Shown one piece after another: positions 3,945-44,003 of a DNA stretch of 61,811 nt (position 1 is the first letter of the stretch; each line of letters starts with the position of its first letter). The DNA is from Lysobacteraceae bacterium (GTDB lineage: Bacteria > Pseudomonadota > Gammaproteobacteria > Xanthomonadales > Xanthomonadaceae). The position numbers were made by a program, and so were the translations under genes. A model generated the notes under the pieces. The model did not search any database. It was given only the letters and a program-made list of their open reading frames with translations, and was not told the origin of the DNA. The stretch lies in the NCBI GenBank assembly GCA_035759645.1, contig DASTUL010000031.1, positions 1 through 61,811 of the forward strand. The letters run 5' to 3'.

Positions 3945-4014
3945 CGATCCAGTCTAGCGGGCGCCGTCTCATGGCCGGCGATCGAGCGGACGCGCGAGTG
4001 GATCAACCTGTTAG

Positions 4015-4052
4015 TTGACTTTTAATAAATCAATCAGTACGTTGAAAACGTA
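4015..4052 (+). promoter_or_regulatory. Candidate hipB-1 promoter with an overlapping operator palindrome
   Basis: TTGACT (4015-4020), a 17-nt spacer, then TACGTT (4038-4043). The inverted repeat TACGTTgaaAACGTA spans 4038-4052. This is the only AT-rich patch in the rmuC/hipB divergent spacer. Confidence 0.4.
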
Positions 4053-4068
4053 ATTATCACCCTATGGG

Positions 4069-4314
4069 TTGAACATGCTCACCCCCATCCGAATTCCCGA
4101 CCAACTGGGCCCGCTGCTGCGCGCTACCCGCCTCCAGCTGGGATGGACTCAAGCCGACGTCGCCCAGCGCATGGGCGTGACCGTGCAGGCCATTTCCAAA
4201 CTCGAGGCCAATGCCAGCCGCGCATCGTTCGAGCGGATCCATCGCCTGTGCCTGGTCCTGGGCCTGGAGCTGGGCCTGCAACCACGAACCGCCGTCGCCG
4301 ACGCGGAGTGGTGA
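4069..4314 (+). CDS. hipB: XRE-family HTH antitoxin, HipB-like (module 1)
   Basis: HTH segment LGWTQADVAQRMGVTVQAISKLE. TTG start at 4069 or ATG at 4075. The stop lies 1 nt before the hipA GTG. Confidence 0.7.
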   Translation: MNMLTPIRIPDQLGPLLRATRLQLGWTQADVAQRMGVTVQAISKLEANASRASFERIHRLCLVLGLELGLQPRTAVADAEW

Positions 4315-4315
4315 C

Positions 4316-5671
4316 GTGCCCACGCTCGACATCTGGATGAACGGCTCGCTCGTCGGCCATTGGACCCGGCACGCCGGGATCGATCGGCTGACGTATCGCC
4401 GCGAGTGGATGGACTCGCCGCAAGGCAGGCCCATCTCGCTGTCCCTGCCGTATGCGCGGGCCGCTGGCGGCCCTGTCTCCATCCGGTCCCCCGCAGTCGG
4501 TGCCTTCTTCGACAACCTGCTCCCGGACAACGACCGGATCCTCCAGCGGATCCGCGACCGCCATCGGCTGCGAAGCACGCACGCATTCGACCTGCTCGCC
4601 GCCGTCGGCCGCGATTGCGCGGGCGCGTTGCAACTCGTGCCCGAAGGCGCCGAGCCGGGGAACCCACAACTCATCGAAGGCCGCGAGCTGGACGACGCGG
4701 GCGTCGCCGCCGTGCTGCGCGCCGCAACCCTCGACAGACTGCCCACGCAAGCGGACCCGGATGCGTTCCGAATCTCGATCGCGGGCGCGCAGGAAAAGAC
4801 CGCGCTGCTGCGACACGAAGGGAAATGGCAGATTCCCCACGGTGCAACGCCGAGCACGCACATCCTCAAGTTGCCGCTGGGGCTGGTCGGCAACATGCGC
4901 GCCGACCTGTCGTCATCGGTGGAACTCGAATGGCTGTGCCTGGAAATCGCACGCGCGTTCGGGCTGCCGGTGGCCAAGGCGGAAATCGGCTGGTTCGAGG
5001 ACCAGAAGGCGCTCGTCGTCGAACGCTTCGACCGACGGCTCGCGAGCGACGGATCCTGGTACATCCGGATTCCCCAGGAGGACATGTGCCAGGCGCACGG
5101 CGTGCGCGCCGACAACCGGTACGAAGCCGATGGCGGTCCCGGCATCCGGGAGATCATGGCGTTGCTGCGCGGGTCGACCGAAGCAACCGCCGACCGCGTG
5201 ACCTTCTTCCGCGCACAGGTCCTCTACTGGCTGATGGCGGCGACGGACGGACACGCCAAGAACTTCAGCCTGGTCCTGATGCCCGGCGGCACGTACCGCC
5301 TGGCGCCGCTGTACGACATCCTGTCGACGTATCCCATCCAGGGGCGCGGCCCGGGGCAACTGGATCCACGCCGCGCGAGACTGGCCATGGCGGTCTGCGG
5401 AAAGAATCGGCATTACCTAGTTGCCGATATCCACCACCGTCATTGGGTCGCGATGGCGGAGCAACTCGGCTTGGAGACGGGGGCGCGCGAGTTGATCGCC
5501 GGCCTCAGCGGCGAAGTCGAAGTGGTGCTCGACCAGATCGGCAACCGCCTGCCGCCGGCGTTCCCTTCCATGGTTTACGACATGGTGCGGGACGGGATGA
5601 TGGCTGCGGCGTGGAAGCTGGATGTCGAAGCAGGTTGCGGGGCAACGCGTCGGGTTAGCGGCCCTCACTGA
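4316..5671 (+). CDS. hipA: HipA-family serine/threonine kinase toxin (module 1)
   Basis: HipA N-terminal pattern (LDIWMNGSLVGHW), GAQEKTAL, STHILK, and catalytic motif TDGHAKNFSL. GTG 4316 was chosen as the start; ATG 4337 is the alternative. Confidence 0.85.
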   Translation: MPTLDIWMNGSLVGHWTRHAGIDRLTYRREWMDSPQGRPISLSLPYARAAGGPVSIRSPAVGAFFDNLLPDNDRILQRIRDRHRLRSTHAFDLLAAVGRDCAGALQLVPEGAEPGNPQLIEGRELDDAGVAAVLRAATLDRLPTQADPDAFRISIAGAQEKTALLRHEGKWQIPHGATPSTHILKLPLGLVGNMRADLSSSVELEWLCLEIARAFGLPVAKAEIGWFEDQKALVVERFDRRLASDGSWYIRIPQEDMCQAHGVRADNRYEADGGPGIREIMALLRGSTEATADRVTFFRAQVLYWLMAATDGHAKNFSLVLMPGGTYRLAPLYDILSTYPIQGRGPGQLDPRRARLAMAVCGKNRHYLVADIHHRHWVAMAEQLGLETGARELIAGLSGEVEVVLDQIGNRLPPAFPSMVYDMVRDGMMAAAWKLDVEAGCGATRRVSGPH

Positions 5672-5768
5672 TCACCTTGAATCAGGACGATCCTGTGGGC
5701 GTGGTCCCCATCGTCGACGGCGGACTAGGCTATCGAGCAGGAAACTTACAAGGCAACCAACATGGCGC

Positions 5769-7763
5769 CTAAGCAATAACAGGCACGCCAAGAGACTTGA
5801 GATACTCGAAGGTCGGATCGTAGTACGCAGCCGAGCGTGTCGGATCGAAAGGATCACCATTCGGCACAACAATTACTAGTCCTTGGCGGGCGCGTGTCAT
5901 CAAGACCCGGTACGCATTCGTCTGATATCTCTGTCGATCTTCAGATTTGATTCGCTGCCACCGGGTACCCCTAAATTCATTGTGTGACCAGCCATCTGGT
6001 GAGAAACGAAGGTCTCCGTCCCACACGAGGCACGCCCAATCGACCTCCAGCCCTTGAACCTGGAACTCGGTCGCAACATCCTCCAAGTAGTAGCTCGAAC
6101 GAACATCGCTTTTCCCGCCAAGAAACCAATGAACTGGGTCAACAGGCACCCGGACATCGATCGCGTGTGGCTTGAGGCGATAAGCCTGGGACGAGACAAC
6201 GACTCCGTAGCGTTCCGTCCCACGCGCTTGAGTACGAACCCATTCCCTTCCGGCTTCTGGGCAGCGTGTAAGAGCAATGGGGTAATCAGCCAACAGCTGC
6301 TTCAAGAGATCCCGCGCACCGTCTGTTTCCAGGTCCAGGACCATACGGACGAAGTCACTCAGTGATTCCGCGCGAAATGACCGCATCGAAACGGCCAGAT
6401 GTAGCGTCTCATCGAGGTGCAATGACCCACGCACGCTTGCATCGTCCAGGTGTTGCTGTGCGCCGTACTGTGGCGCCCGCAATTGCGGTGAGACGTGTAT
6501 GTCCCAATGCGGAAAATGACCGGCTACGGCTTCTAGCCATTCCGCAATGCCGCCCTCTCCTGTGTTGATCTCCTGGCCACTTCCTACCAAGCAAACAATG
6601 ACTGCCCAGTCTTCGTGGCGATCCATGCACGAAATCAAAAAAGCCGGCTCAGACATCGGGAAATTTTCCCTTCCCTTTTTCCTCTTCATGAAGGATCGCG
6701 TCTGTTGCAAATTCCAAGCGCGTTGCGCTTCGTCAAACAGCGCTACGTGATCACTTGGAGCGCCTTGGTCGCTTAAGTACTCGTCGCGAAAATGGTGGAC
6801 GTTCTGAATGAATGCGCTGACCTGTCGCTTCAGTTCCTTCTTTGTCACCCGCTCGCCCTGGGACCTCCTAACTTGTAGCTCATTTCGAGCCAAAGCTTCT
6901 TGCAATACGGCAACAAGCGGACCATTTCCGGACAGATACACGCTGTAAAGTTCGCTGCTCGGATCCATGTGGCGGTGAGCTACATCCAGCCCTACCAACG
7001 TTTTTCCAGCGCCCGGAACTCCCGTAACAAAGCAGATGGCTTTTCTGCTCCGGTTCCGAGCATCGTGAATCACGGAGTCGACCGCACGGGCGGTCATGGA
7101 GAGGTTGATGGCGCCTGCGTCGCTGCGCGAAATTTGATCTACGGAGTGGCCCGCATAGAGGGCAACTGCAGCCTCGACAATTGTTGGTGTTGGTGAGTAG
7201 CGGCCGGACGCCCAGTCTTCCCCGAGTGCCGCACCTGACAAGGTGACGAGCGCCTTTCGCAATACTTCGCACGCCTGCCCTTTGCCGACGTTGATTGGTT
7301 TCAGAACGTCGTCTTCTCGCATACTCAAACCGAACTCGACCCGTACAGGCGCAGCGTTCGACGCAATCAGGAGTGGCACCAAGCAAGCTTGGTGGCTCGT
7401 TTGATGGAAGTACTTGAGGTCAAGCGCGTAGTCCCACACCTGATCACGCGCAGCGGCGGTGAACTGGGTTTCACCAACCTTGAACTCGATAACAAAAATG
7501 AGGTGCCGAATTGCTACAACGGCATCAATACGTTTACCAAGGCGCGGGACCGCAAACTCGAAGTAGATGTGTCCAGTTTCGTCAAGCTGAGCCAGTGCCT
7601 CTTGCAGGATCTCGACTTGAGCCACCCACGCACGGGTTTGCTCAATATCGACAGAAAATTTGGAATTCCGGACAAGGTGGCCGACAACGAAATCCGCCTC
7701 CCGTCCCAGGAAACTGGAGATGGTGTCTCCGTAGTACCAACGCCCCTCAAGCGGAACGGCCAT
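5769..7763 (-). CDS. DUF2075-type P-loop NTPase / SF1-like helicase with an N-terminal PD-(D/E)xK-like nuclease module
   Basis: Nuclease-like motif D80...E93-x-K95 (RIDAVVAIRHLIFVIEFKVG). Walker A VTGVPGAGKT (aa 246-255). Walker B ALFDEAQRAW. C-terminal helicase motif-VI-like YRVLMTRARQGLVIVV. The gene is clearly AT-richer than all of its neighbours. Confidence 0.75.
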   Translation of the reverse strand: MAVPLEGRWYYGDTISSFLGREADFVVGHLVRNSKFSVDIEQTRAWVAQVEILQEALAQLDETGHIYFEFAVPRLGKRIDAVVAIRHLIFVIEFKVGETQFTAAARDQVWDYALDLKYFHQTSHQACLVPLLIASNAAPVRVEFGLSMREDDVLKPINVGKGQACEVLRKALVTLSGAALGEDWASGRYSPTPTIVEAAVALYAGHSVDQISRSDAGAINLSMTARAVDSVIHDARNRSRKAICFVTGVPGAGKTLVGLDVAHRHMDPSSELYSVYLSGNGPLVAVLQEALARNELQVRRSQGERVTKKELKRQVSAFIQNVHHFRDEYLSDQGAPSDHVALFDEAQRAWNLQQTRSFMKRKKGRENFPMSEPAFLISCMDRHEDWAVIVCLVGSGQEINTGEGGIAEWLEAVAGHFPHWDIHVSPQLRAPQYGAQQHLDDASVRGSLHLDETLHLAVSMRSFRAESLSDFVRMVLDLETDGARDLLKQLLADYPIALTRCPEAGREWVRTQARGTERYGVVVSSQAYRLKPHAIDVRVPVDPVHWFLGGKSDVRSSYYLEDVATEFQVQGLEVDWACLVWDGDLRFSPDGWSHNEFRGTRWQRIKSEDRQRYQTNAYRVLMTRARQGLVIVVPNGDPFDPTRSAAYYDPTFEYLKSLGVPVIA

Positions 7764-7769
7764 CCCTAA

Positions 7770-9260
7770 TCATTCCCGGAACCCCTTCTGCCCAGGATAG
7801 GCGAGATTCTCGGCTTCCTCTATGCGCGCCCCAGCATCCGCCACCGGCGCCGGCACCTGCGCCGGCACCTCCGACGGGATCGCGATCGCATCCGGACCCA
7901 CCGGCAGCATCGTCGCCTCTCGCCACCTTCCCCACTTGTAGTACGCCAGCGACGCCACCATCGCCACGAACGCGCTGACCGGGAAGCTCCACCAGATCGC
8001 ATCCACCCCCAGCTCCGGCTGCAGCCAGTTGGCGAACGGGATGCGCACACCCCACAGCGCCACGCCCAGGATCACCAGCGGCGGGATTACCGCGCCGGTC
8101 GAGCGCACCACGCCGGCTACCACGAACGTCACGCCGAAGAACAGGAACGACCACACCGCGATGCGGTTGAGGTGACGGGCGATCTCCAGCGCCTCGCTGC
8201 CGGCCGGCATGAACCACGACAGCGTGAACTGGTCGAGCAGGATCAGCGGCGCGATCAGCGCGCCGGTCAGCAGGAAGTTGAAGGCGATGCCCGTGCGGGC
8301 GGTCGCGTTCACGCGGTCCCACTTCAGCGCGCCCACATTTTGCGCAGCCATCGAGGAACACGCGGCGCCGATCGCCATCGCCGGCATCTGCACATAGGTC
8401 CACAACTGCATCGCGGCGCCGTAGGCCGCGGTGGTGTCGGTGCCGTACTGGTTGACCATCACGATCATCGCGATCAGCGCCAGCGAAATCACCACCATCT
8501 GCAGGCCCATCGGCACGCCCTTGACCACCATCGTGCGCACGATGGTCCAGTCGGGGAGGTACAGTCGGTTCTCGTCGCGGCTGATCCACAGCGGATGCCG
8601 CTTGTGCCGCAGCCACAGGACCATCGCAGGCAGGGCGATCAGGTTGGCCACCAACGTCGCCATCGCGCTGCCGGCCATGCCCATTTCGGGCAGGGGCCCG
8701 ACGCCGAACATCAGCAACGGCACCAGCCCGATGTCCAGCGCCACCGCCAGCAGCAGGAACAGGAACGGTGTGCGGGTGTCGCCCGCGCCGCGCAGGATCG
8801 CCGACAGGAACGCGAACGCGTACAGCAGCGGCAGCGCCAGGAAGATGACGCGGATGTAGGCAACGGCCAGCGGCATCGCGTCGGCAGGGGTGGCCATCCA
8901 ACCCAGCACGCGCTCGGCCAGCACCCAGCCGATCGCGGCCAGCACCACCGACAACAACAGGAAGAACGTCGCCGCGCTGCCGATCACCTTGCGCGCGCCC
9001 GCCAGGTCCTTCCGCCCCATCGCCTGCCCGACCAGGATCGTCGAGGCCATGCCGAAGCCGAAGATCCCGCCCAGCAGGAAGAACATGATGTTGTTGGCGT
9101 TGGCGATCGCCACCAGCGCCTCTTCGCCCAGGAAGCGCCCGACCCAGATCGCATTGACCGAGCCGTTGAGGGACTGCAGGACGTTGGCGCCGAGGATCGG
9201 CAGGGCGAAAGCGAAGAGGGTGGGCCCGATGGGGCCGGTGGTGAGGTCGCGACGCTGCAT
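7770..9260 (-). CDS. MATE family efflux transporter
   Basis: MQRRDLTTGPIGPTLFAFALPILGANVLQSLNGSVNAIWVGRF is a typical MATE N-terminus, and the protein is polytopic. The track ORF 7770..9587 was trimmed to ATG 9260. Confidence 0.85.
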   Translation of the reverse strand: MQRRDLTTGPIGPTLFAFALPILGANVLQSLNGSVNAIWVGRFLGEEALVAIANANNIMFFLLGGIFGFGMASTILVGQAMGRKDLAGARKVIGSAATFFLLLSVVLAAIGWVLAERVLGWMATPADAMPLAVAYIRVIFLALPLLYAFAFLSAILRGAGDTRTPFLFLLLAVALDIGLVPLLMFGVGPLPEMGMAGSAMATLVANLIALPAMVLWLRHKRHPLWISRDENRLYLPDWTIVRTMVVKGVPMGLQMVVISLALIAMIVMVNQYGTDTTAAYGAAMQLWTYVQMPAMAIGAACSSMAAQNVGALKWDRVNATARTGIAFNFLLTGALIAPLILLDQFTLSWFMPAGSEALEIARHLNRIAVWSFLFFGVTFVVAGVVRSTGAVIPPLVILGVALWGVRIPFANWLQPELGVDAIWWSFPVSAFVAMVASLAYYKWGRWREATMLPVGPDAIAIPSEVPAQVPAPVADAGARIEEAENLAYPGQKGFRE

Positions 9261-9316
9261 TGCGGCAGGGTAGCGACCGGGGGTGCAGCCGGCGCGAAAT
9301 CGGGCATCCTCGACGC

Positions 9317-9913
9317 ATGGCGGACAAGACCTTCTCGCCGGCGTGCGAGCGCAATCGCGAGCCGATCCTGGCGGTGCTGCAAAGGCATTTCTCCGGGCGC
9401 CATCGCGTGCTCGAAATCGGCAGCGGCACCGGGCAGCACGCGGTGCACTTTGCCGCGGCGATGCCATCCCTAACGTGGCAGTGTTCGGACGTCGCCGCAC
9501 ACCTGCCGGACATCGAGGCCTGGCTCGCGGACGCGGCGCTACCCAACACGCCGCCGCCCATCGAACTCGACGTCTCGCGCGGGCCATGGCCCCGGAACCG
9601 TTTCGACGCGGTCTTCAGCGCCAACACGTTGCACATCATGGGCTGGCCGAAAGTCGAGGCCTTTTTCGCCGGACTGCCGACGGTGCTGGAAGGCAAGGCG
9701 ACCGTCGTGGTCTACGGCCCCTTCAACTACGGCGGCGACTACACCAGCAGCAGCAACCGGGAGTTCGACGACTGGCTGAAGGCACGCGACTCCCGGTCCG
9801 GCATCCGCGACTTCGAATCGGTCGATGCCCTGGCCCGCGCCATCGGGCTGGAGCTCGTCGAGGACGTGGCGATGCCGGCCAACAATCGGTGCCTCGCCTG
9901 GCACCGCGGGTGA
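9317..9913 (+). CDS. DUF938-type class I SAM-dependent methyltransferase-like protein
   Basis: FSPACERNREPILAVL, the SAM-binding loop VLEIGSGTGQHAVHFA, and LTWQCSD. Divergent from the MATE gene. Confidence 0.7.
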   Translation: MADKTFSPACERNREPILAVLQRHFSGRHRVLEIGSGTGQHAVHFAAAMPSLTWQCSDVAAHLPDIEAWLADAALPNTPPPIELDVSRGPWPRNRFDAVFSANTLHIMGWPKVEAFFAGLPTVLEGKATVVVYGPFNYGGDYTSSSNREFDDWLKARDSRSGIRDFESVDALARAIGLELVEDVAMPANNRCLAWHRG

Positions 9914-10758: not shown

Positions 10759-10787
10759 TTGACATTCCGTTGTGCGCGGCAGATATT
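10759..10787 (+). promoter_or_regulatory. Sigma70-like promoter of hipBA-2
   Basis: TTGACA (10759-10764), an exact 17-nt spacer, then GATATT (10782-10787). Confidence 0.55.
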
Positions 10788-10802
10788 CCCGATCAGGAAT
10801 AT
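10783..10802 (+). promoter_or_regulatory. Operator-like palindrome O2 (ATATTCC-cgatca-GGAATAT) overlapping the -10
   Basis: Inverted repeat that shares the TTCC...GGAA core with O1 and O3. Confidence 0.5.
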
Positions 10803-10820
10803 CAACCGCGACTCGTTAGA

Positions 10821-11060
10821 ATGCAACCCAAGAATTCCCGATCGGGAACATCGTCGCTCCACCCGGACCTCGAAGCCATCGCCACCGAGGTCCGGCAGGC
10901 GCGTCATCGCCATGGCCTGACCCAAGCCGAATTGGCGGGCCTGGCGGGAACCGGCATCCGGTTCGTGGGAGACCTCGAGCGCGCCAAGCCGCGCTTGTCA
11001 CTGGACAAGGTCCTAGCCGTGTTGGCGGCGCTCGGCCTGCGGTTGCAAGTCGCACCATGA
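10821..11060 (+). CDS. hipB: XRE-family HTH antitoxin, HipB-like (module 2)
   Basis: HTH segment HGLTQAELAGLAGTGIRFVGDLE. 4-nt overlap with the downstream hipA. The start is uncertain (ATG 10821 or TTG 10770). Confidence 0.65.
   Translation: MQPKNSRSGTSSLHPDLEAIATEVRQARHRHGLTQAELAGLAGTGIRFVGDLERAKPRLSLDKVLAVLAALGLRLQVAP
10835..10848 (+). promoter_or_regulatory. Operator-like palindrome O3 (TTCCCG-at-CGGGAA)
   Basis: Perfect palindrome just inside the 5' end of the hipB-2 reading frame. Confidence 0.45.
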
Positions 11061-12352
11061 CGATCGGCCCCGACCGGCTGGTCGTCCGGCTGTTCGGGGA
11101 GCCGGCGGGCAAGCTGGAAATCGACGGTCCGCTGCACAGTCCGGAAGACTGGCGCTTCCGATACTACGAGGCCTACCTGGCCCGAGCGGAAAGCTGCCCG
11201 CTCTCGACCACGCTGCCATTGCGCCCGCAACCTTTCGAAGGTGCGGTCGTGCGCAACTGGTTCTGCAACCTGTTGCCGGAAGGCTTGGTGCGCGAGGCGA
11301 TCGAGCAGCGGCTGCGCATTCCCCCGCGGGACGACTTCGCGATGCTGGCCGCAATCGGCGGCGAGTGCGCTGGTGCAGTCAGCATCGGACCGCGCGGAAG
11401 CGCGGCGCCCGATGACATGCCATCCGATGCGGCCGACCTCGCAACGACGCTCCAGGTGCATGACGGCGACGAAGCCGGCGAGGGCGCCTGGGCCGCAATC
11501 GCCGCGCCGAACCGCCTTACGCTCGCGGGCGCGCAAGACAAGATCGCGGTCGTGGTCGAACCCGGCGGCCAGCTGCGCCTGCCGCGGCTCGGCGAGCCGA
11601 GCACCCACATCCTCAAGCCCGAAAGCAGGGTGCTGCCTGGGTTGCGGGACCTGGAGCTGCTGGGGCTGACTCTTGCCCGGGCCGTTGGCCTGCAGGCCGT
11701 CGCGGCCAGTCCTGTCGACATTGCCGGTCGGAAGGCGTTGCTGGTGGAACGCTACGACCGGGCACTCGACCGCGACGACAACCGCGTCCGGCTGCACCAG
11801 GAAGACTTCTGCCAGGCGCTGGGCATGCCGGGGGAGTTGAAGTACCAGGCCCAGGGCGGGCCGTCGCTCGCGCGCTGCGCCGGATTGCTTCGCACGACGT
11901 TGCGCCTCGGGCCGCCCGCGCTGCAGGGCTTCCTGGACTGGATCATCTACAACGTGCTCATCGGGAATGCCGATGCGCATGCCAAGAACCTGGCGCTCCT
12001 CCGGGACGCAGCCGGGACCCTCGCACTGGCGCCGTTCTACGACATGGTCCCGACGATCGTGTATCCCGAATCCATGGTGGAGCGCACGCCGGCGCTCGAC
12101 ATTGGCGGCGCACCGCGGATCGACGCGGTCGAGCGCCGCCATTGGGAACGGCTGGCGACCGAAACGGGTTACGCGCGTGGCTTCGTCATGCGCCGGGTGT
12201 CGGAACTCGCCGGCGCGGTGGTCGAAGCGATGCCCAATGCAGTCGCAGTACTGGTCGAAGGGACGGCTGACGCCACGCGCGTCGAACGCGCAGCGTCGGT
12301 GATCGTCGCCAACGCAACGGCAACGAAACAGCGCGCTCTCCTGGCTGGGTGA
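11057..12352 (+). CDS. hipA: HipA-family serine/threonine kinase toxin (module 2)
   Basis: Motifs LAGAQDKIAVV, STHILKP, LLVERYDR, and the catalytic segment GNADAHAKNLALL. Confidence 0.85.
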   Translation: MTIGPDRLVVRLFGEPAGKLEIDGPLHSPEDWRFRYYEAYLARAESCPLSTTLPLRPQPFEGAVVRNWFCNLLPEGLVREAIEQRLRIPPRDDFAMLAAIGGECAGAVSIGPRGSAAPDDMPSDAADLATTLQVHDGDEAGEGAWAAIAAPNRLTLAGAQDKIAVVVEPGGQLRLPRLGEPSTHILKPESRVLPGLRDLELLGLTLARAVGLQAVAASPVDIAGRKALLVERYDRALDRDDNRVRLHQEDFCQALGMPGELKYQAQGGPSLARCAGLLRTTLRLGPPALQGFLDWIIYNVLIGNADAHAKNLALLRDAAGTLALAPFYDMVPTIVYPESMVERTPALDIGGAPRIDAVERRHWERLATETGYARGFVMRRVSELAGAVVEAMPNAVAVLVEGTADATRVERAASVIVANATATKQRALLAG

Positions 12353-12434
12353 CCCGGATTTCGCTGCGCTGCATCCGGGCTACGGGGATCGGCAGGATCG
12401 GTAGCCCGGATGGAGGCCGCAGGCCGCAATCCGG
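12353..12434. repeat. REP family C doublet downstream of hipBA-2
   Basis: Sequence cccggatttcgctgcgctgcatccgggctacg ... gtagcccggatggaggccgcaggccgcaatccgggg. It has the same orientation as the 10591 cluster. Confidence 0.85.
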
Positions 12435-12538
12435 GGCCGTTGTCCGGCCCGCCCACCCGTGACCCCGGCCCCGTTCCTCGGTGCACGCGTGGGGTAGGCT
12501 TGGGGCTCGCCGTAGTGCGTGTCCAAGGGAGCGATGGA

Positions 12539-42684: not shown

Positions 42685-42957
42685 ATGCCCAAGTACGTGA
42701 TCGAGCGGGAGATCCCTGGCGCCGGCCAGTTGTCTTCCCAGGAGCTGAAGGGGATCTCCCAGAAGTCGTGCGGCGTGCTCAGCAACCTGGGGCCGCAGAT
42801 CCAGTGGGTCGAGAGTTTCGTCACCGGCGACAAGGTCTATTGCGTGTACATCGCGCCGAACGAAGACATGGTCCGCGAGCACGCGCGGCAGGGTGGCTTC
42901 CCGGCCAATCGCGTGTCCGAAGTCATGACGATGATCGATCCGACGACAGCGGAATGA
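42685..42957 (+). CDS. DUF4242 domain protein
   Basis: MPKYVIEREIPGAGQLSSQELKGISQKSCGVL...VYCVYIAPNEDMVREHARQGGFPAN matches my memory of the DUF4242 family. Confidence 0.7.
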   Translation: MPKYVIEREIPGAGQLSSQELKGISQKSCGVLSNLGPQIQWVESFVTGDKVYCVYIAPNEDMVREHARQGGFPANRVSEVMTMIDPTTAE

Positions 42958-44003
42958 CGACACGGGCCTACGGCGCGCTTGCCGCCGACAAGCCGCTCGA
43001 ACCGCTCGACATCGAGCGGCGCTCACCCGGGCCGTCCGACGTCCAGGTCGCCATCGCCTATTGCGGCGTCTGCCATTCGGACCTGCACACCGTGCGCTCG
43101 GAATGGAGCGGCACGCGTTTTCCGTGCGTGCCGGGACACGAGATCGTAGGGAAGGTCACGGCGGTCGGCGGCGACGTCACCCGGTTCAAGGTCGGCGACA
43201 CCGTCGGCGTCGGCTGCATGGTCGACAGCTGCCAGCGCTGCGCGTCATGCGCCGAGGGGTTGGAGCAGTACTGCGAGAACGGGTTCGTCGGTACGTACAA
43301 CGGCGCGACGAAGGACCCGCCGGGACACACGCTTGGCGGCTATTCGCAAAGCATCGTGGTGTCCGAAAAGTTCGTGTTGAAGATTCGTCATCCGGAAGCA
43401 CAACTTCCGGCCGTGGCCCCGCTGTTGTGCGCGGGCATTACCACGTACTCGCCGCTGCGCCACTGGAACACCGGTCCCGGCAAGAAGGTGGGGATCGTCG
43501 GCATCGGCGGCCTGGGACACATGGGTGTGAAGCTTGCGCACGCGATGGGCGCGCACGTGGTCGCGTTCACCACGTCCGAGGGCAAGCGCAAGGACGCGTT
43601 GGCGTTGGGTGCGGACGAGGTGGTGGTGTCGCGCAACGCCGACGAGATGCGCAAGCACGCGCGCAGCTTCGACCTGATCCTCGACACGGTAGCCGGCAGC
43701 CATTCGCTGGACGCGTACACGAGCCTGCTGAAACTCGACGGCTCGCTGGTCCTGGTCGGCGTGCCGGAGCATCCGCATCCGAGCCCGACCATCGGCGTGC
43801 TGATCTTCGGCCGCCGGTCGATCGCGGGCTCGTTGATCGGTGGCATCGCCGAGACCCAGGAGATGCTCGACTTCTGTTCAGAGCACGGGATCGTCGCGGA
43901 CATCGAGATGATCCAGGCGCAGGGAATCGACGAGGCCTACGAACGCATGTTGCGCAGCGACGTGAAGTACCGGTTCGTCATCGACATCGCGTCGCTCGGC
44001 TGA
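42954..44003 (+). CDS. Zn-dependent NAD(P)-dependent alcohol dehydrogenase (YahK-like)
   Basis: CGVCHSDLH, GHEIVG, and GIGGLGHMGVKLA (Rossmann fold). Confidence 0.85.
   Translation: MTTRAYGALAADKPLEPLDIERRSPGPSDVQVAIAYCGVCHSDLHTVRSEWSGTRFPCVPGHEIVGKVTAVGGDVTRFKVGDTVGVGCMVDSCQRCASCAEGLEQYCENGFVGTYNGATKDPPGHTLGGYSQSIVVSEKFVLKIRHPEAQLPAVAPLLCAGITTYSPLRHWNTGPGKKVGIVGIGGLGHMGVKLAHAMGAHVVAFTTSEGKRKDALALGADEVVVSRNADEMRKHARSFDLILDTVAGSHSLDAYTSLLKLDGSLVLVGVPEHPHPSPTIGVLIFGRRSIAGSLIGGIAETQEMLDFCSEHGIVADIEMIQAQGIDEAYERMLRSDVKYRFVIDIASLG

Follow-up and report, generated by a model that had tools for sequence, protein, structure and literature searches.

An Nhi-like (PDC-S41) nuclease–helicase gene, probably acquired horizontally, at the 3' end of a MATE efflux gene in a Lysobacteraceae genome

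We analysed a stretch of 61,811 nucleotides (nt) from a Lysobacteraceae bacterium (contig DASTUL010000031.1, positions 1 to 61,811; hereafter the window), in which a single gene, lying between a MATE efflux gene and a hipBA pair, encodes a nuclease–helicase that can be assigned by its sequence to the Nhi-like family (PDC-S41 in PADLOC). It is likely that this gene encodes a stand-alone defence enzyme, which was acquired horizontally by a Luteimonas/Lysobacter-like ancestor and became attached to the 3' end of the core MATE gene. The gene is a genuine but ordinary further copy of a known defence family that has one verified member. The gene and its parts are (window coordinates; residue numbers refer to the encoded protein):

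5769–7763, minus strand: Nhi-like (PADLOC PDC-S41 family) nuclease–helicase gene (open reading frame (ORF), translation, PADLOC and Pfam)
7224–7763, minus strand: N-terminal PD-(D/E)xK nuclease domain, residues 1 to ∼180 (AlphaFold2 and Foldseek)
7479–7526, minus strand: catalytic motif D80 ... E93-x-K95 (RIDAVV ... VIEFKVG; family alignment and model)
5862–7043, minus strand: SLFN-group-3/DUF2075 superfamily 1 (SF1) helicase-like NTPase domain, residues 241–634 (Pfam PF09848 and Foldseek)
6999–7022, minus strand: Walker A motif GVPGAGKT, residues 248–255 (among 51 homologues, invariant at seven of its eight residues; A252 varies only rarely)
6723–6740, minus strand: Walker B motif (motif II) LFDEAQ, residues 342–347 (F343, D344, E345, A346 and Q347 invariant)
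5868–5906, minus strand: helicase motif VI-like VLMTRARQGLVIV, residues 620–632 (T623, R624, A625, R626, Q627 and G628 invariant)

The protein matches the PADLOC profile PDLC05014 (PDC-S41) with E = 1.8e-272 (residues 8–662 on profile positions 3–652 of 657) and the Pfam family PF09848 with E = 5.8e-75 (residues 241–634 on profile positions 1–353 of 354); PF09848 is the former DUF2075, which Pfam now names "Schlafen group 3 helicase domain". The PADLOC model of Nhi (PDLC02372) matches only the P-loop (E = 1.2e-4, residues 239–265), and so does the PADLOC AbiO model. Searches with the window protein found no match among PDB sequences and no family in NCBIfam, and in PHROGs nothing beyond Zot, which matched weakly at the P-loop; a full-text literature search for "PDC-S41" returned no paper.

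The connection to an experimentally verified protein comes from Millman et al. (2022), who gave the name "Nhi-like" to a verified defence protein with an N-terminal nuclease and DUF2075; in their supplement it is SG141 (marked verified), a protein of 611 amino acids from Bacillus cereus FSL H8-0482, the first 399 residues of which are printed. BLASTP of the window protein against these 399 residues gave a collinear alignment (27% identity, E = 7e-44, residues 42–415 against 41–382), which spans the E..D..ExK motif, a conserved linker and both Walker motifs. WP_242785657.1, a protein from a B. cereus megaplasmid that was found by tblastn with the window protein and is 89% identical to SG141, matches PDC-S41 over its full length with E = 1.4e-114 and the Nhi model only with 3.6e-6. 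Given the homology to SG141 and the PDC-S41 match of WP_242785657.1, PDC-S41 and the Nhi-like proteins of Millman et al. are one homologous family, to which the window protein belongs. The original prediction, made from the DNA letters alone, had likened the protein to nuclease–helicase immunity proteins, and this likeness is borne out by both the profile and the homology to SG141; its remark that DUF2075 is largely uncharacterised does not hold for this very family, which has a PADLOC model and a verified member. Table S17 of Millman et al. places the Nhi-like family in many phyla and includes entries matching "Lysobacter". The family features found in the window are the profile match, homology to SG141, the nuclease, the DUF2075 helicase and a stand-alone gene, none of whose neighbours (MATE, hipBA and rmuC) is conserved with the family.

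The nuclease and ATPase centres are intact and conserved. In an alignment of 51 homologues (57–75% identity), E69, D80, E93-x-K95, Q108 and D111 are invariant, and so are all four motifs that had been named before, A252 of Walker A being nearly invariant. The AlphaFold2 model of the N-terminal 195 residues (pLDDT, the predicted local distance difference test, 91.2; pTM, the predicted template-modelling score, 0.89) has an alpha-beta-beta-beta-alpha-beta core, with D80 on the second strand (77–85) and E93 and K95 on the third (88–95). When the PDB was searched with this domain by Foldseek, PD-(D/E)xK nucleases made up nearly all of the better matches (roughly the first 16): Cdn1, McrC, VC1899/Card1-like, Dna2, Can2, R.BspD6I, the Cas4-family ACE1 and DdmD. 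Their E-values (4e-4 to 5e-2) and template-modelling scores (∼0.35–0.41) support the PD-(D/E)xK fold, yet indicate no close solved relative; the predicted fold agrees with the nuclease that the original prediction had read from the motif. The model of the full-length protein (pLDDT 75.6) has its best Foldseek matches in SLFN11 (7zel, E = 3.7e-6), SLFN14, Upf1, RecD and Dna2, so that the C-terminal part is predicted to be a Schlafen/Upf1-type SF1 helicase core. The linker between nuclease and helicase (residues 184–221, nt 7101–7214) is unusually conserved among the homologues (W184, G187, Y189, P191-T192-P193, I195, E197-A198-A199, S212-R213 and N220-L221 are invariant), and it can be recognised in the B. 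cereus Nhi-like protein as GFYEPSPSMLEAARSIL.

The gene differs sharply in composition from its surroundings. The segment 5672–7769 has a G+C content of 55.4%, as compared with 69.3 ± 1.9% for all other intervals of 2098 nt in the window (z = −7.5), and is the unique G+C minimum of the 61.8 kb; the hand counts of 60-nt lines made earlier (33/60, 26/60 and 40/60) are reproduced exactly. It holds a single long ORF (5769–7763, minus strand, 664 amino acids, ATG to TAG, G+C 0.553), as had been described, whose G+C content at third codon positions (GC3) is 0.59, against 0.78–0.96 for the other likely genes of the window (0.83 for hipA, 0.81 for hipB and 0.86 for MATE). On the minus strand, the MATE stop codon TGA (7772–7770) is followed by TTAGGG and then by the ATG at 7763, i.e. 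by the gap of 6 nt that had been noted. The MATE stop and this ATG are in one frame (TGA TTA GGG ATG), and the same is seen in one related lineage (L174; TGA TGG GGA ATG); reading through the TGA would fuse the MATE and Nhi-like proteins, which is probably meaningless.

No recognisable mobile element carries the gene. We found no tRNA gene in the window (scan), only short chance matches when the flanks of the insert were searched for repeats (direct or inverted) and for a structure resembling attC, and no integrase or transposase in domain scans of the likely genes or among the 25 commonest families listed for the wider window. The earlier statement that integrase, tRNA, insertion sequence (IS) and obvious direct repeats are lacking therefore stands, its recombinase part within those likely genes and listed families, and by these signs (integrase or transposase, tRNA target, repeats, attC) the gene is neither an island nor an integron cassette nor IS-borne cargo. 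A GTTGGTT after the stop codon of the gene was considered as part of an attC site and rejected, as it is mismatched to the attC R' consensus. The remainder of the window is housekeeping in character (DNA polymerase I, G6PD, glucokinase, Edd, amylases, HemF etc.).

Comparison of relatives shows that the gene is an addition to this locus. Among MATE orthologues from 80 species-representative Lysobacteraceae genomes, none (0/80) has a homologue of the Nhi-like gene within 10 kb. The same junction of MATE and the gene is found in only two metagenomic lineages: one (L003) encodes a protein 91% identical to that of the window and continues with hipA, hipB and rmuC as in the window, and the other (L174/L175) encodes a 93% identical protein and has an alcohol-dehydrogenase-like gene downstream in place of hipA (the window homologue of that gene is 36 kb away, at 42768–44003). 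The absence from 80 species and the restriction of the junction to two lineages argue for a real insertion, and the gene must have joined MATE before the lineages of the window, L003 and L174/L175 split. The proposal that the gene was horizontally acquired and stands alone is thereby upheld, both by its absence from this junction in the 80 species, which a core gene would not show, and by its composition.

The closest species, Luteimonas sp. LC097 (L049; 91% nt identity in MATE and 88.5% on the mla/rmuC side), lacks window positions 3984–7824 and has in their stead a 1.1-kb segment; the HNH_2 endonuclease encoded there fits the PADLOC "HNH" model (E = 6e-21). Two genes of this locus are (coordinates of L049):

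11486–12466, minus strand: HNH_2 endonuclease
8841–9893, minus strand: extra wHTH-HATPase-DUF4325 gene

In another relative (L004; MATE 85% nt identity), hipA lies directly after MATE, convergent with it, and the Nhi-like gene is absent. Relatives differ in the defence or toxin–antitoxin cargo that they carry in the 3' flank of MATE, which forms a small hotspot. The wider synteny is uninformative, as among the relatives rmuC is close to MATE only in L049 and L003. The extra wHTH-HATPase-DUF4325 gene of L049 sits between DUF938 and MATE.

The edges of the insert can be placed as well. The MATE C-termini of seven relatives align with that of the window through ...PVADAGAR and then diverge, and the tail IEEAENLAYPGQKGFRE with its stop is common only to the window, L003 and L174. 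The G+C content is 0.769 at 7823–7900 and 0.559 at 7764–7822. Since MATE homology ends and G+C falls there, we place the left edge at ∼7822, about 50 nt inside the MATE ORF, so that the last 17 MATE codons (7773–7822) are derived from the insert. An abrupt shift in composition between the stops of hipA and MATE had been proposed; the shift is real, but its edge on the MATE side is not at 7770. The incoming DNA replaced the original end of MATE, whose ORF now runs into the leader of the Nhi-like gene; the "docking" at 6 nt arises because the MATE ORF reads this leader until the first stop. The right edge lies within the spacer that separates the gene from hipA, which is variable (73 nt of it are absent in L003). 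The features flanking the gene are:

7764–7822, minus strand: insert-derived 5' leader, which also encodes the last 17 residues of MATE (IEEAENLAYPGQKGFRE) and its stop (end of homology, G+C)
7792–7799, minus strand: conserved 8-mer TATCCTGG, 28 nt before the ATG, a candidate −10 (TAnnnT) or regulatory element
5672–5768, no strand: 3' spacer that separates the Nhi-like gene from hipA, the stops of the two genes being convergent (97 nt, G+C 0.577)

The 8-mer TATCCTGG is also found 20–32 nt upstream of the ATG in three independent insertions with unrelated flanks (L170, with a 75% identical protein; L172, 64%; L155, 56%). We estimate that chance alone would give ∼0.08 occurrences in the set of ∼80 upstream regions, each of 70 nt. 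It is plausible that this sequence is a −10 element or an operator that travels with the gene. Transcription would then probably start from the insert-borne, −10-like TATCCTGG, and read-through from MATE may add to it. The original prediction held that there is no room for a promoter of the gene's own, which is unsafe in view of this leader; the idea that the gene rides on the host transcript survives in part, as co-transcription with MATE is possible but not forced. The Shine–Dalgarno sequence of the gene is weak, and a terminator scan found a weak hairpin (5765–5786) that overlaps its stop codon.

The family to which the gene is assigned is large and patchily distributed. Clustered at 50% identity, it comprises 4791 groups at a threshold of E ≤ 1e-3, or 1027 at E ≤ 1e-30, and the full-length architecture is retained down to ∼35% identity; relatives with 58–61% identity come from Beta- and Gammaproteobacteria, Actinobacteria and Planctomycetes. 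The G+C content of the homologues ranges from 0.30 to 0.66 in 84 loci and is on average 5.4 points under that of their flanks (>3 points lower in 51 out of 71 loci, higher in four). We surveyed 101 immediately adjacent ORFs from 56 loci, and these include eight HNH_2 endonucleases, three C5-methylases, two HpaII, two NERD, two HIRAN and two further DUF2075 proteins, which is the neighbourhood expected for a defence gene. The HNH_2 genes (∼200–360 amino acids) adjoin the homologue in eight out of 56 loci (L097, L110, L112, L119, L138, L156, L159 and L160), in five cases upstream on the same strand, in one downstream on the same strand and in two convergently. We rejected HNH_2 as an obligatory partner, as it occurs in these eight loci only, varies in position and strand and is not found in the window; it may be loosely linked to the homologue in function, or the two may simply be cargo of the same islands.

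Tight docking behind the upstream gene recurs in the family (a same-strand gap of ≤13 nt in ∼10–14 out of 84 loci), and we rejected it as a defining rule. In betaproteobacterial loci (L084, L085 and L086, near position 8001) the thiC stop overlaps the ATG of the homologue (TGATG), and precisely at this point G+C falls from 0.62 to 0.52, so that here again an insertion lies flush with the 3' end of a core gene. Two further observations concern single members: a homologue of 759 amino acids (P0076) has an N-terminal HTH_3/HTH_31 fusion, and an uncultured "Bacteriophage sp." contig from human faeces (MT836127.1) carries a full-length copy that is 46% identical.

A more far-reaching version of the insertion, which we consider unlikely, is that the leader and the ORF form a minimal cassette that carries its own TATCCTGG and inserts itself into unrelated genes, within their 3' ends or directly at them, with no recombinase, repeat or tRNA. 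If true, this would mean an unrecognised insertion route for single defence genes, and possibly a methylation-dependent, type IV-like action that is shared with the adjoining HNH_2 nucleases.

One challenge to a defence role would be that the protein is a housekeeping nuclease–helicase of DNA repair or recombination (similar to Dna2, RecB or AddAB) that happens to have an odd composition. The Foldseek matches to Dna2 and RecD, the location among core genes of the chromosome, close to rmuC, and the presence of some homologues among housekeeping genes would be compatible with such a role. But the gene is absent from this locus in 80 related species, its family is patchy across phyla at 58–61% identity and systematically AT-richer than its hosts, restriction-type neighbours are enriched and one homologue is verified as anti-phage, all of which make a repair role improbable. 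It is about as improbable that the gene has no current function and is what remains, silent or in decay, of a mobile element. A remnant might well have no consensus promoter and a weak Shine–Dalgarno sequence, as here, and be accompanied by no further mobile-element genes (in the likely genes and the 25 commonest families listed); a remnant would not be expected to keep a full-length ORF with every catalytic residue intact together with the conserved upstream motif. Moreover, the genes of the window and L003 are 84% identical in DNA and 91% in protein with no frameshift, which indicates purifying selection.

Several points weigh against the reading of the gene as an acquired Nhi-like defence enzyme. 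The identity to SG141 is only 27%, with the comparison limited to the first 399 of 611 residues, so the specificity may differ. The Nhi model matches only the P-loop, and any transfer of mechanism from Nhi accordingly rests on shared architecture and not on close homology. The helicase part of the structural model is only moderately confident (pLDDT 40–85). Scanning 5500–8200 for a sigma-70 consensus promoter gave no match, so that expression can only be inferred. Many members of the family sit among housekeeping genes without defence neighbours (e.g. L084), and our literature search found no experiment on the window protein or on any proteobacterial member.

Judging from its verified homologues, the acquired enzyme may work in two steps: the C-terminal motor would bind invading DNA and translocate on it or unwind it with ATP, and the N-terminal, Mg-dependent nuclease would then cut it, such that phage DNA fails to accumulate. 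The phage resistance that we suppose for the window protein would be that of its B. cereus homologue. With SG141 the window protein shares the layout of a single protein, in which a PD-(D/E)xK nuclease and a linker (GxYxP(T/S)P...EAA) precede the DUF2075 SF1 helicase, together with collinear homology, a match to the same hidden Markov model end to end (for SG141 through its 89%-identical relative) and stand-alone genes. The two are distant, however: the host of the window protein is a high-GC gammaproteobacterium and that of SG141 a Bacillus with the gene's kin on a megaplasmid, the window protein is ∼55 residues longer, and methylase-dependent phage sensitivity was demonstrated for the Bacillus protein only. 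The Nhi protein of Staphylococcus epidermidis (SERP2475; Bari et al. 2022) likewise has a PD-(D/E)xK nuclease and a DUF2075 helicase in one polypeptide and provides anti-phage nucleic-acid immunity from a single gene, a role for which the window protein would be a counterpart by its architecture; both activities of Nhi are needed, and phage DNA accumulation is blocked. In sequence the window protein falls outside the Nhi profile, with no similarity beyond the P-loop, and according to Millman et al. Nhi-like and Nhi share no sequence identity. Phages also escape the two differently, from Nhi through the phage single-stranded DNA-binding protein and from Nhi-like through a phage methylase. A 2025 preprint counts Nhi-like among PD-(D/E)xK/SF1 nuclease–NTPase systems; its assembly could not be modelled there.

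More speculatively, modification of the DNA may decide which target is chosen, as it does in type IV restriction. The phages that escape Nhi-like carry loss-of-function mutations in a methylase, from which the authors infer that methylated phage DNA confers sensitivity. Because the escapers of the homologue lost their methylase, and because an McrC-like fold and the company of HNH_2 nucleases are compatible with it, a modification-dependent, type IV-like mode is the most specific hypothesis that can be offered, and at 27% identity it is a lead only. McrBC, a type IV system, resembles the window protein in its NTP-driven motor with a PD-(D/E)xK nuclease, and the N-domain resembles McrC (6hz4_M, probability 0.99); the literature also gives a hint that the homologue targets methylated phage DNA. 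Unlike McrBC, the window protein is a single polypeptide whose motor is an SF1 helicase and not an AAA+ GTPase, and in which Pfam finds no modification-reading domain.

It is also improbable that the protein acts on RNA in the manner of Schlafen or Upf1 proteins, e.g. as an abortive-infection RNase–helicase, and not on phage DNA. Its best full-length structural matches are indeed SLFN11, SLFN14 and Upf1, and PD-(D/E)xK enzymes can cleave RNA, as has been published. Human group III Schlafen proteins (SLFN11 and SLFN14) share the PF09848 helicase (best structural match 7zel) and also have an antiviral role; their N-terminal tRNA/rRNA endoribonuclease core, however, differs in fold and is lacking in the window protein, which has a restriction-endonuclease-like domain in its place. 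Because its N-domain is of the PD-(D/E)xK type and Pfam finds no Schlafen/AlbA_2 match, the window protein is not a Schlafen proper. DNA as the substrate is favoured by nearly all of the better N-domain matches, which are DNA nucleases, by Nhi, which degrades DNA, and by the escape from Nhi-like through a DNA methylase.

The neighbours of the gene are as follows; the identities of hipA, hipB and MATE were confirmed by Pfam and NCBIfam.

7770–9587, minus strand: host MATE efflux gene (Pfam MatE, TIGR00797), the core upstream flank
9260–9913, plus strand: DUF938 methyltransferase gene, which overlaps the first ∼300 nt of the 605-residue MATE ORF
4069–5671, plus strand: hipB (4069–4314) and hipA (ORF 4211–5671; Pfam HTH_3, Couple_hipA and HipA_C)
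10770–12352, plus strand: second hipB-like/hipA pair, with hipA-2 at 11057–12352 (Couple_hipA, HipA_C)

It is very improbable that these neighbours form a functional unit with the gene, whether in a three-gene defence/toxin–antitoxin module with hipBA or in an operon with the MATE pump. The gene does adjoin both, with its ATG 6 nt past the MATE stop in the same frame, and L003 conserves the layout MATE/gene/hipA/hipB. But in L174/L175, where the protein is 93% identical and the junction with MATE is the same, the alcohol-dehydrogenase-like gene and not hipA follows downstream; L004 has hipA right after MATE and no Nhi-like gene; the 101 ORFs that adjoin homologues yielded no cluster of HipA or MATE; and hipBA has a host-like GC3, with hipA convergent and not co-oriented. 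We also rejected the view that hipBA and the Nhi-like gene form a single island when compared with L049, in which hipBA is absent: GC3 is 0.81–0.83 for hipBA and 0.59 for the Nhi-like gene, and the combinations differ among L004, L174 (no hipBA downstream) and L003. The proximity to hipBA, which had been made part of the story, is therefore incidental.

As for the MATE gene itself, orthologue alignments begin near residue 100 of the 605-residue ORF, and this, together with the overlap with DUF938, places its start probably at ∼9280 (∼500 residues). MATE and DUF938 are thus probably divergent, with the MATE ORF over-extended at its 5' end. The second hip pair is absent in L049, which has a gene of 1247 amino acids similar to indolepyruvate oxidoreductase (POR and DUF6537) instead; the region around MATE is therefore variable on both sides.

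The Nhi-like family is already known, and as a discovery in itself the gene of the window is ordinary. The locus is a clean and datable insertion of a single defence gene into a core chromosome, for which both an empty-site comparator and an alternative cargo are available. There are three useful by-products: PDC-S41 can be equated with Nhi-like, the insertion is dissected precisely and the upstream motif is seen to be portable. The equation upgrades thousands of proteobacterial "DUF2075 domain-containing proteins" from candidate to probable defence genes, and a conserved, soluble-looking proteobacterial member with a confident model of its nuclease domain is a reasonable choice for studying how such enzymes discriminate phage from host DNA, including a possible methylation cue.

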